The notes under the pieces were generated by a model, which ran no database searches, had not been told where the DNA came from, and saw only the letters and a list, made by a program, of their open reading frames with translations. Shown here piece after piece: positions 17,812 through 19,501 of a stretch of DNA of 57,346 nucleotides (its first letter is position 1; every line of letters starts with the position of its first letter). This stretch comes from a virus. Its lineage: Duplodnaviria; Heunggongvirae; Uroviricota; Caudoviricetes. The position numbers were made by a program, and so were the translations under genes. The DNA is taken from the IMG/VR virus record IMGVR_UViG_2597490083_000002. One strand, 5' to 3'.

Positions 17812-18233
17812 TGTTTAACCTGATGTTGACCTCTAAAAAGCTGACAAAAACGGCAATTAACGAGGCGCTCCGGAGGATGAAAAAAGCAGGTCTGAACAAG
17901 TCTGAACTTGAGGCTTTTTTGCGGGATATGATTAACGGTAAGCAAAAGAGCTGGCTGGCGCATTGTACTGATGCAGAGGCGTTATGTATTGATCGGGTCA
18001 TAAGTGAGGTGCTGGCAGAGCATCCAGGATTGATTAGCGTCCTTCGGCAACGGTATGAGGGGCGGGGGATGACCAAATGCAAAATGGCTGAACTGCTGAA
18101 TGATGCACACCCGAAATGGAGTTTAAGAACCTGTGAAAGACGCATTGAGCATTGGCTAAAGGTGGCAGAATTTATTTTGTACAAACCAATGGTTATGGCT
18201 TTTGGTATAGAGAAAAAAGTTATTGCTTTTTGA
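17812..18233 (+). CDS. Putative late-gene antiterminator (Q-position protein), possibly 5'-truncated by IS911
   Basis: Sits directly upstream of the same terminator/tRNA arrangement that follows Q at 26880..27260, but the sequence differs from that Q; start taken at first Met after the IS911 junction. Confidence 0.4.
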
Positions 18234-18310
18234 CGTAAAAACTGCTTCAATTCTTGTACGCTTCGCAAAGCTGTACCGCGAGGCGAATAGCAGACATGGA
18301 CATTTGAAAG

Positions 18311-18338
18311 AGCCCGCTTTATGCGGTTTTTTTTATAC
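18311..18338 (+). terminator. Short hairpin plus T8 run downstream of the Q-position gene (tR'-like)
   Basis: gcccgc-ttta-tgcgg followed by tttttttt; weaker stem than the copy at 27347. Confidence 0.4.
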
Positions 18339-18422
18339 CTGAAAAACGGCACAGGACGTTAAACGTGCTGGTGATCAGATGAGTTTGCAGATGTGATGAC
18401 ATATGGTTATTATTCTGCCTCC

Positions 18423-18499
18423 GGCCCTTTAGCTCAGTTGGTCAGAGCGAGCGACTCATAATCGCCAGGTCGCTGGTTCAAGTCCAGCAAGGGCCACCA
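18423..18499 (+). tRNA. tRNA with CAU anticodon (Ile2/Met type, ileZ-like)
   Basis: Hand fold: acceptor GGCCCTT, anticodon loop CUCAUAA, T-loop TTCAAGT, CCA encoded. Confidence 0.8.
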
Positions 18500-18500
18500 A

Positions 18501-18577
18501 CCACCACTAGCTCATCCGGATAGAGCATCAACCTTCTAAGTTGACGGTGCGAGGTTCGAGTCCTCGGTGGTGGGCCA
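18501..18577 (+). tRNA. tRNA-Arg (UCU), argN-like
   Basis: Acceptor CCACCAC/GTGGTGG, anticodon loop CUUCUAA, T-loop TTCGAGT. Confidence 0.85.
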
Positions 18578-18579
18578 GC

Positions 18580-18654
18580 GCCGACTTAGCTCAGCAGGCA
18601 GAGCAACTGACTTGTAATCAGTAGGTCACCAGTTCGATTCCGGTAGTCGCACCA
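18580..18654 (+). tRNA. tRNA-Thr (UGU)-like, probably defective copy (1-nt deletion in 3' acceptor strand)
   Basis: Anticodon stem ACTGA/TCAGT with loop CUUGUAA; 3' acceptor reads agtcgc here versus agtcggc in the copy at 27617..27692. Confidence 0.55.
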
Positions 18655-18657
18655 TAT

Positions 18658-18732
18658 GCGGGCATCGTATAATGGCTATTACCTCAGCCTTCCAAGCTGA
18701 TGATGCGGGTTCGATTCCCGCTGCCCGCTCCA
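18658..18732 (+). tRNA. tRNA-Gly (UCC), glyT-like
   Basis: Acceptor GCGGGCA/TGCCCGC, anticodon loop CUUCCAA, T-loop TTCGATT, CCA encoded. Confidence 0.8.
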
Positions 18733-19342
18733 GCGAGATTTGAGACGAAGGTTGTTATTTGCACTGACACAATATTGTGTGGGAATGTCTGACTCCTTAC
18801 CATCTCCTGTTCTGTGATGTTGTTTTGTTGCAGTTCCAGTGCTCTTTTTTCAGCACCAGAATGGTGCATTGTCGGTCAGGTTACGTAGTGAACCTCTGGC
18901 AGGGGACTGATAATGCATCATTCTGGTGTTGTAAATATCTCTTCGGACAACTTACAAAATATTCTAAGCAAACCCCGGGAACACACTCTTAACTGCCTTG
19001 GCTGGCGGTTTTTTGTACAGTGCTCGGTATGTGTGAGCTGGAAATCAGATTTTGCATGGACTGGAATCATGCTGTTATTTAGGGGCGAAGAACTGGCTTT
19101 TTCTTCCGCCTTCTCACCAGTAACGATTAGAAAAATAATGAAATGCCCCTCCGGGGAGGAGGACCGTAGAAAAAAGGACCCGCCAGCAAAAACATTGGGG
19201 ATGAACAGCTTTCGCTACTCAGATTGCTGGCGGGTAAAGTTCCTCATGAATTAAGAATGCTACGCGATCTTTTTTAATGGAAATGAAAATTATTGTCAAT
19301 TAGTCGTGCGTGTTTTTTCATACAATATTGGTAAAGGTGATT

Positions 19343-19382
19343 CAGGCCATCAGAGTTTTGCTGATGGCCTTTTTTCTTTCCG
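19343..19382 (+). terminator. Rho-independent terminator upstream of holin fragment
   Basis: ggccatcag-agttttg-ctgatggcc followed by ttttttctttcc. Confidence 0.5.
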
Positions 19383-19411
19383 ATAGCACAGGTCTGTCGG
19401 GGGGGCGGGAT

Positions 19412-19501
19412 ATGTATCAGATGGAAAAAATATCAACAGGCATTGCCTACGGCACCTCCGCCGGCAGTGCCGGCTACTGGTTTTTGCAGTGGTTGGATCA
19501 G
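19412..19501 (+). pseudogene. Holin, N-terminal 30-codon fragment cut by IS600
   Basis: [30 protein letters not shown] is near-identical to the N-terminus of the intact holin at 28063..28278; IS600 end follows immediately. Confidence 0.7.

Follow-up and report, generated by a model that had tools for sequence, protein, structure and literature searches.

Two candidate non-coding RNA modules in the tRNA-to-holin spacer of an insertion-sequence-bounded prophage stump

Positions 17791-19501 of a 57,346-nt stretch of tailed-phage DNA (Caudoviricetes; IMG/VR record IMGVR_UViG_2597490083_000002) hold part of a lambdoid late-control module: a Q-like gene, four transfer RNA (tRNA) genes, a spacer of about 680 bp and the beginning of a holin gene. 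The whole stretch is referred to here as the window, and coordinates without another label are window positions. We think it probable that this region is the stump of a second lambdoid prophage, cut by the insertion sequences (IS) IS911 on the left and IS600 on the right, that its spacer is the complete native tRNA-to-holin intergenic region of the lineage, with no scar from loss of a cargo gene, and that recombination has joined two non-coding modules, which move separately among E. coli phages, into the mosaic seen in this spacer. The tRNA-linked module 1 (18733-19016) is predicted to encode a plus-strand structured RNA, and the holin-linked module 2 (19032-19405) contains a likely candidate for a minus-strand small RNA (sRNA) gene. 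The window carries the same arrangement a second time, with tRNAs at 27460-27770 (copy 2). By comparison with copy 2, an initial annotation, made from sequence alone, had described the present region as a second, decayed copy of the late-control module. Our results bear this out, as two IS cuts, a damaged tRNA-Thr gene and a holin stump were found.

Completeness of the spacer in intact relatives

Homology to an intact prophage of E. coli RMDEC465 (locus L001) starts at 17791 and stops at 19501. Over this length the window aligns end to end with L001 5058-6771 at 99.5% identity, with 5 mismatches and 2 small indels. L001, the one of nine full-spacer loci that was inspected for its neighbours, encodes DUF1367, DUF1364 and DUF1133 proteins, four tRNAs, a class II holin (681 bp after the tRNAs), RrrD and a lysis protein, all intact. 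The full spacer (18733-19411; 679-680 bp) is present in nine complete E. coli genomes at 99.1-99.6% identity, the range for the eight other than L001 being 99.1-99.4%. The initial annotation had contrasted its length with about 290 bp in copy 2, where we measured 292 bp. The copy-2 spacer is a third, unrelated and common lineage variant (530 genomes), in which a scan found no terminator-like site. Because the spacer is full-length and near-identical in intact prophages, nothing appears to have been lost from it, and because copy 2 carries a separate common variant, the difference between 680 and 290 bp reflects lineage rather than decay. Thus, as judged by alignment, the spacer is the complete native intergenic region of this prophage lineage.

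There is no coding signal in the spacer, where the initial annotation had likewise seen no convincing ORF. Five open reading frames (ORFs) of 50-113 codons lack Pfam and PHROG matches, except for the portion of one of them that enters the holin. The Prokaryotic Genome Annotation Pipeline (PGAP) annotation of the L001 spacer includes neither a gene nor a pseudogene, and the spacer alignments contain indels that are not divisible by three. A 63-aa "hypothetical protein" is annotated 5' of the holin in some genomes; we considered it as a coding remnant and dropped it, as it has no open frame in the window. A search of 18733-19412 against Rfam 15 gave nothing at the gathering score. At E≤10, generic microRNA-precursor-like matches on the long hairpin described below and generic matches to terminator-driven sRNAs were obtained, all far below threshold. 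We identified the following elements in the spacer:

18760-18843, plus strand: cloverleaf-like four-way junction, with helix P1 (GCACUG/CAGUGC) around three hairpins, from the minimum-free-energy fold of the window sequence alone (18755-18850)
18847-18935, plus strand: long hairpin with a 29-pair stem, a conserved asymmetric internal loop (UGGCAGGG) and an apical stem; -48.0 kcal/mol, z=-8.7
18991-19016, plus strand: intrinsic terminator T1, at the end of the tRNA-linked module; terminator scan, -10.6 kcal/mol
19146-19163, minus strand: second small hairpin with a T-rich tail, 3' of the terminator of the sRNA-like unit; terminator scan, 2-nt indel relative to L001
19170-19264, minus strand: predicted sRNA-like unit of ~95 nt; -30.9 kcal/mol, z=-3.6
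19271-19299, minus strand: promoter-like site of the sRNA-like unit, TTGACA-17-TAAAAA, read directly from the sequence
19344-19376, plus strand: strong intrinsic terminator T2, 36 nt 5' of the holin start, with a 10-pair stem (6 G-C) and T6; -17.3 kcal/mol, z=-4.6

The spacer is a recombinational mosaic. Module 1 is linked to tRNA-Gly(UCC) and module 2 to the class II holin, and the boundary between them lies at 19017-19031, just 3' of T1. The first 300 bp (18733 to ~19017) have full-length matches in the nine genomes only. At ~70% identity, they resemble what comes after tRNA-Gly in prophages that differ in holin and Q type, among them a Rac-type prophage, pig enterotoxigenic E. coli (ETEC) prophages with canonical Q, phage 683R6 and the LT-IIb toxin phage SerU-LTIIb, which has two copies. 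For the last 374 bp (19032-19405), ~1430-1450 of the 5426 complete E. coli genomes (~27%) have a counterpart 5' of a class II holin, at 86-88% identity. Phage remnants without a holin match module 2 as well: one is on an island of strain CFT073, at ~2 kb from papI, and others are on plasmids that bear iss, in the interval from iroB to iss. A block of ~235 bp, from T2 through the minus-strand unit, is kept in these remnants (L101 3501-3736 for CFT073 and L102 3501-3733 for the iss plasmid), and for the plasmid type 642 places were found.

A plus-strand structured RNA predicted from module 1

The prediction that module 1 encodes a plus-strand structured RNA is supported by real covariation, and is better evidenced than the minus-strand unit. 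RNAalifold, applied to 15 distinct sequences, placed 51 pairs in module 1. In these, 96.0% of alignment cells are paired, and shifting the partners by 1-3 columns lowers the figure to 34-55%. Both partners have changed in eleven pairs, whereas column shuffles gave 4.4±1.4 such pairs and none of 500 reached 11. As the homologues are related, these figures lend support but are not to be read as probabilities. The strand comparison is a cleaner test, in which the ratio of G·U to A·C cells is 157 to 3. For the long hairpin alone, 98.2% of cells pair across the 15 sequences and the ratio is 106 to 1. Such an excess of G·U over A·C points to selection on a plus-strand RNA and is not expected of a DNA palindrome. 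The fold of the hairpin region is also weaker on the minus strand (-31.0 kcal/mol versus -48.0 on the plus strand).

In the four-way junction, P1 is nearly invariant, and changes in the inner helices (alignment columns 87-90/102-105 and 46-50/78-82) are either compensatory or one-sided. We considered a tRNA pseudogene for 18760-18843 and rejected it, given no ARAGORN call, no Rfam tRNA match at E≤10 and loop sizes that are not tRNA-like. T1 is kept in the ETEC1747 homologue, with a change from U·G to C-G, and the scan found no terminator-like site between the promoter-like site of the tRNAs (18384-18413) and T1.

The long hairpin is the best-conserved part of module 1. Its core is conserved in 88 IMG/VR stretches, which were fetched using a pattern for its 3' arm. 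Hardly any change is seen in this arm (18913-18935; AUGCAUCAUUCUGGUGUUGUAAA); for the IMG/VR loci this is in part built in by the retrieval pattern, but it holds also for homologues that BLAST identified. The 5' arm varies via G·U pairs. The near-invariance hints at a sequence-specific role for the 3' arm; a trans target was sought within the window, where only the hairpin's own 5' arm matched. When a pattern for both arms was applied to one genome per species, matches were confined to E. coli and S. flexneri, plus one chance match. At loci with an uninterrupted flank, tRNA-Gly lies 178-195 nt 5' of the 3' arm, the exception being L077 (1.2 kb). There is one copy of the hairpin in the window and there are 1-5 per genome, all chromosomal. 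Dispersed repeats such as miniature inverted-repeat transposable elements have many copies in unrelated contexts, and the dyad does not show this pattern. In the IMG/VR locus L045, a different sequence is present in place of the 5' arm, and the hairpin seems to be a recurrent breakpoint.

A minus-strand small RNA candidate in module 2

The minus-strand stretch from 19264 to 19170 is likely a candidate sRNA gene, based on its layout and conservation. A small hairpin at the 5' end leads via a linker into a terminator (stem 19235-19178), the outer stem of which has 12 pairs and surrounds an apical stem of 8 pairs, and U6 follows. A minus-strand hairpin with a T-run had been reported here by the initial annotation. 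Both are real, with the coordinates shifted (stem 19178-19235, U-run 19170-19175). The unit is 96% identical across four lineages (the window, AR0086/IHE3034, the CFT073 island and the iss plasmid), whereas the surrounding blocks are 86-88% identical to the window. The TTGACA of its promoter-like site is unchanged in the four lineages, and also occurs 5' of the sRNAs PasA and PasC discussed below. A covariance model of the unit gave scores of 117-122 bits, on the minus strand only.

T2 corresponds to a plus-strand terminator that had been noticed previously, and the scan places it at 19344-19376. Upstream of the PP2 holin of enteropathogenic E. coli (EPEC) E2348/69, a terminator-like hairpin and U-run are present at the position aligned to T2. 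A possible plus-strand sRNA with its end at T2 was also considered, but no promoter of acceptable quality could be assigned to it (TTGTCA-22-TACAAT), and Rfam matches were generic and sub-threshold.

The suggestion that the spacer may hold a small RNA is thus borne out as a prediction, by the covarying plus-strand structure and by the conserved minus-strand unit running from promoter to terminator. The initial annotation would have been contradicted by a spacer made up of ordinary intergenic sequence of intact phages that lacks conserved structure and coding remnants. Only half of this applies: the spacer aligns wholly to intergenic DNA of intact prophages, yet conserved structure is present.

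Alternative explanations

Several points weigh against the two RNA predictions. In addition to the relatedness of the homologues and the retrieval by 3' arm already mentioned, all module-1 homologues are from Escherichia/Shigella phages. In two other genomes (L022 and L054 of IMG/VR), IS911 is inserted in the 5' arm of the hairpin, so the element is dispensable to the host. For the minus-strand unit, the -10 TAAAAA is weak and the site was missed by the consensus scan. The unit is too invariant for a covariation test, and there is an A·C mismatch in the terminator stem of one lineage. Both RNAs are predicted from sequence and folding, and the functions proposed below for T1 and T2 are by analogy.

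The initial annotation had proposed that the spacer is the relic of a lost moron, so that its extra 390 bp would be a degraded cargo gene between the tRNAs and the holin. This slot does carry cargo elsewhere (a methyltransferase in L002 and L003, an esterase in E2348/69), and copy 2 has only 292 bp here. We consider the proposal very improbable, given that the spacer has the same length and 99.1-99.6% identity in nine other E. coli genomes, in one of which (L001, the one inspected) the neighbours are intact. No PGAP pseudogene was annotated in L001, the five ORFs lack database matches, the indels are not multiples of three, and what is conserved is accounted for by RNA pairing and terminators. 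It is also very improbable that the dyad at 18847-18935 works as DNA, whether by binding a protein as a palindrome, by acting as a hotspot of recombination or by moving as a miniature transposable element. It is a near-perfect inverted repeat with recombination or insertion breakpoints inside it in L022, L045 and L054, but the predominance of G·U over A·C, both in the hairpin and overall, implies a wobble that is tolerated only if the plus strand is read as RNA. Moreover, a single copy in the window and 1-5 per genome, at a fixed distance from tRNA-Gly except in L077, misfit a dispersed repeat.

The minus-strand hairpin and U-run could be a mere backstop terminator for stray antisense transcription, forming a convergent pair with T1, with no sRNA gene involved. 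The weak -10, the silence of the promoter scan, the lack of a detected sequence or structure relation to PasA or PasC, and the second minus-strand hairpin immediately after (19163-19146) are all consistent with this. We find it doubtful, while giving it real weight, because the sequence from the -35 to the U-run is conserved as one block and is kept with T2 in the holin-less remnants (CFT073 island, iss plasmids), because the transcribed part is 96% identical compared with 86-88% for the surrounding block, and because its predicted 5' end lies as far from TTGACA as do the mapped 5' ends of PasA and PasC. Finally, the two modules may lack any function of their own and owe their conservation solely to common descent in the recent past and to hitch-hiking with neighbours such as the tRNAs, the holin or iss. 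That all homologues come from one genus pair, and that the module-2 lineages differ by only 12-14%, would fit such a history. It is nevertheless unlikely, as module-1 homologues are only ~70% identical overall, yet 96% of cells pair and the changes are compensatory, and the predicted module-2 RNA is markedly more conserved than its flanks.

Comparison with known systems

PasA and PasC (EcOnc51/52 of enterohaemorrhagic E. coli, EHEC) are Hfq-dependent sRNAs of EPEC E2348/69 that were mapped between an esterase gene and a class II holin, in the same slot and the same antisense orientation as the minus-strand unit. The pasA and pasC genes adjoin the holin-lysozyme operon (bioRxiv 10.64898/2026.05.13.724894). 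In PasA/PasC as in the unit, a terminator hairpin and U-run come after a 5' region, and the lengths are similar (78-85 nt for PasA/PasC and ~95 nt here). A plus-strand terminator separates PasA/PasC from the holin, as T2 does for the unit. When the window-type offset from TTGACA was applied to the E2348/69 loci, the published 5' ends and lengths of PasA and PasC were reproduced. Unlike those of PasA/PasC, the terminator hairpin of the minus-strand unit is much larger (a 12-pair outer stem around an inner stem-loop). The distribution also differs, as the unit is found in ~27% of E. coli genomes, including extraintestinal pathogenic (ExPEC) and avian pathogenic (APEC) strains, and on iss plasmids. 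We rejected membership in the PasA/PasC family: MAFFT aligned the locus blocks, but pairwise blastn and nhmmer were non-significant over the RNA, and the covariance model gave no PasA/PasC match at E≤10. Because no sequence or structure match was found, we refer to the minus-strand unit as a positional and architectural analogue of PasA/PasC, not a family member.

PapR of uropathogenic E. coli (UPEC) UTI89 was a candidate for the minus-strand unit because of its distribution (ExPEC, EHEC and Shigella, not K-12) and because of the CFT073 copy ~2 kb from papI. It was ruled out by primer sequences. The ends of PapR, taken from published cloning primers (CGGGCTGAAGTCCGG... and ...TCTCCCAGCGCGGGCTTTTTTT), are unrelated to 19264-19170, and the complementarity to papI that PapR and the unit have in common is limited to an 8-nt core.

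Convergent "anti-sRNA" genes, including AsxR, AgvB and others, occupy the moron slot 3' of pR' (Tree et al., 2014; PMC4104026). The RNAs predicted here resemble AsxR and AgvB in being products of convergent non-coding genes located between Q and S of lambdoid prophages. They differ in that AsxR and AgvB are 51-60 nt long, and the Rfam models for AsxR and AgvB have no match in the window. StxS, the short pR'-tR' transcript of Stx phages (PMC7547250), is comparable in that a terminator is found immediately 3' of the Q-position gene, ahead of the tRNAs, here at 18311-18335 and in copy 2 at 27347-27372. The StxS-like terminator is located 5' of the tRNAs and not in the spacer. Non-coding RNA genes and terminators in the lambdoid Q-to-S interval are thus a kind already known, and both particular RNAs are apparently new to description.

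The sib site of lambda and the R sites of T7 are long-hairpin RNase III processing sites in phage transcripts. Like them, the module-1 hairpin, a helix of ~29 pairs, would lie in a polycistronic phage transcript between functionally distinct segments. Unlike them, it is unusually rich in G·U pairs, and RNase III cleavage here is suggested by analogy. Phage T4 makes stable non-tRNA RNAs, species 1 and 2, with its tRNA cluster. The M3 RNA of phage phi80 is described as a hairpin-like RNase P substrate (cited in PMC5499578 and PMC10731613). As with the product predicted from module 1, the T4 and phi80 RNAs are structured, non-coding and encoded on the strand of a tRNA cluster at its end, a likeness offered as analogy only. 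Identification of the hairpin as the phi80 M3 RNA was dropped, as the supposed phi80 locus (L005) is a Rac-type prophage at ttcA with intR, xisR and recET. At ttcA, K-12 normally carries only a short cryptic Rac, but the Rac-type prophage at this site in the genome in question (L005 / L103; NZ_CP026085.1, labelled DH5alpha) is full-length and includes structural genes, so that either the label or the history of the strain is out of the ordinary.

Proposed model and state of the decayed copy

We infer that both RNAs may be transcribed and processed and that either could have a regulatory role. In a lysogen, the promoter-like site at 18384-18413 would drive one unit, from the tRNAs through the structured RNA to a stop at T1. 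The module-1 RNA may then be a stable processed RNA, or a processing or stability element of the tRNA transcript. Its 29-pair helix is long enough for RNase III, and cleavage may split the tRNA part from the late mRNA or give a stable hairpin RNA. The minus-strand unit would be transcribed from its own promoter, convergent with module 1, as is the case for sRNA genes 3' of pR' (PMC4104026). T1 and T2 together could block read-through into the lysis genes and so keep these genes silent in the lysogen, and after induction a polymerase altered by the Q-like protein would ignore both.

It is possible, though somewhat short of an even chance in our estimation, that the junction and hairpin represent a previously undescribed phage non-coding RNA family, made with rare-codon tRNAs and cut by tRNA-specific or double-stranded RNA-specific nucleases to a stable product with its own role. 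If so, the product might tune tRNA output, uncouple the tRNA and lysis transcripts, or release a small regulatory RNA from the 3' arm. The seemingly empty Q-to-holin interval of a widespread group of E. coli and Shigella prophages consists of exchangeable non-coding modules rather than filler. About one in four complete E. coli genomes has the sRNA-like unit, which is also kept beside the serum-survival gene iss on virulence plasmids. If expressed, both RNAs would join a lengthening list of prophage RNAs with effects on host regulation.

In the decayed copy, truncation has left the Q-like gene and the holin dead, and there is also the damage to tRNA-Thr, so that activity could persist in no more than three tRNAs and the two RNA candidates.

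Boundaries and neighbouring features of the fragment

The features that flank the spacer are as follows:

15461-16541, minus strand: inverted piece of the same prophage with the 3' part of Rz/Rz1 and a DedA-like gene; 99.1% identity to L001 8694-7616 reversed, Pfam Rz1 and VTT domain
16542-17790, plus strand: IS911 (IS3 family), left edge; 99.1% identity to annotated IS911
17791-18233, plus strand: 5'-truncated DUF1133 / Q-like gene; Pfam DUF1133 E=6e-73, profile positions 45-176 of 176
18311-18335, plus strand: terminator hairpin and U-run after the Q-like gene (tR'-like position); -11.2 kcal/mol, z=-3.9
18384-18413, plus strand: promoter-like site just 5' of the first tRNA, TTTGCA-18-TATTAT; 9/12 consensus matches
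18423-18732, plus strand: tRNA cluster CAT (Met/Ile2), Arg-TCT, Thr-TGT (1-nt acceptor deletion) and Gly-TCC; ARAGORN, Rfam
19413-19501, plus strand: class II (P21 S-type) holin stump of 30 codons; Pfam Phage_holin_2_1 profile positions 1-26
19502-20775, minus strand: IS600, right edge; 99.3-99.5% identity to annotated IS600, transposase ORFs with HTH_Tnp_1 and rve

Gene order in this prophage lineage is DUF1367, DUF1364, DUF1133 (Q-like), tRNAs, class II holin, RrrD and Rz. The left edge had been overlooked in the initial annotation; it is formed by IS911, the OrfA and OrfB ORFs of which have HTH_Tnp_1 and rve domains (Pfam). An inverted piece of the same prophage, with Rz/Rz1, is located directly to the left of IS911, and thus the remnant is rearranged and not just truncated. 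On the right, the initial annotation was correct in describing the holin as a 30-codon stump cut by IS600. The stump matches the P21 holin S profile and is 90% identical to the beginning of the intact holin at 28063, and the cut lies at 19501/19502, where the element that begins is 99.4% identical to annotated IS600. Decay in the fragment consists only of the two IS cuts, the rearrangement and the deletion in tRNA-Thr. The locus is routine: an ordinary decayed prophage, shredded by IS elements in a Shigella-type genome.

The Q-like gene lacks its first 112 nt. It aligns with L001 from 5058, where the intact gene occupies 4946-5500, and because of the IS911 cut at 17790/17791 only DUF1133 profile positions 45-176 are left. 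The ATG at 17811 is an internal Met codon of the truncated gene. The gene belongs to PHROG 753 ("anti-termination protein Q-like") and has a weak match to Pfam Phage_antitermQ (23.4 bits, cut-off 26); antitermination by DUF1133 proteins is an assignment at the level of annotation. The copy-2 gene at 26880 belongs to a different family, PF06530 Q, in agreement with the difference reported initially.

Downstream, a terminator, the tRNA cluster and holin/lysis genes follow one another on one strand, the order of a late-control module, with L001 as the intact counterpart. The same four tRNAs are present in copy 2 (27460-27770; ARAGORN), as is the promoter-like site (27421-27450), a consensus match only. 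The region had been described as an almost exact repeat of 27347-27770. This holds for the tRNAs and the intergenic sequence upstream of them, which form direct repeats of 98% identity (18329-18628 / 27366-27665 and 18649-18738 / 27687-27776). It is slightly generous for the terminator, as identity begins at its T-run and the stem of the copy-2 counterpart (27347-27372) is different. The gap between the two repeat blocks coincides with the deletion that had been reported in the third tRNA, and which we confirmed: relative to copy 2 and L001, one G is missing at 18649, in the 3' acceptor strand of tRNA-Thr. The gene is 74 nt long here versus 76 nt in copy 2, and its Rfam tRNA score is 55.9 bits versus 69.8.

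The deletion also occurs in S. flexneri SFBU1023 and E. coli ECMA0423. The stretch 14408-22406 is 99.94% identical to SFBU1023 and 99.90% identical to "E. coli" ECMA0423 (loci L098 and L099). As both genomes have the same stretch, including the tRNA-Thr deletion, the IS-bounded stump is fixed in a Shigella-type lineage.

Other features were observed elsewhere in the window. At 20977-22836 there is a 619-aa ORF in which a Toprim_2 primase domain is broken by Hint and LAGLIDADG (intein-like) segments, and the C-terminus of which enters a second IS911 copy (~22803-24051). On the minus strand at 31138-31254, an ALIL pseudoknot (the frameshift element of IS3-family elements; 120 bits) marks another IS within the copy-2 prophage region.

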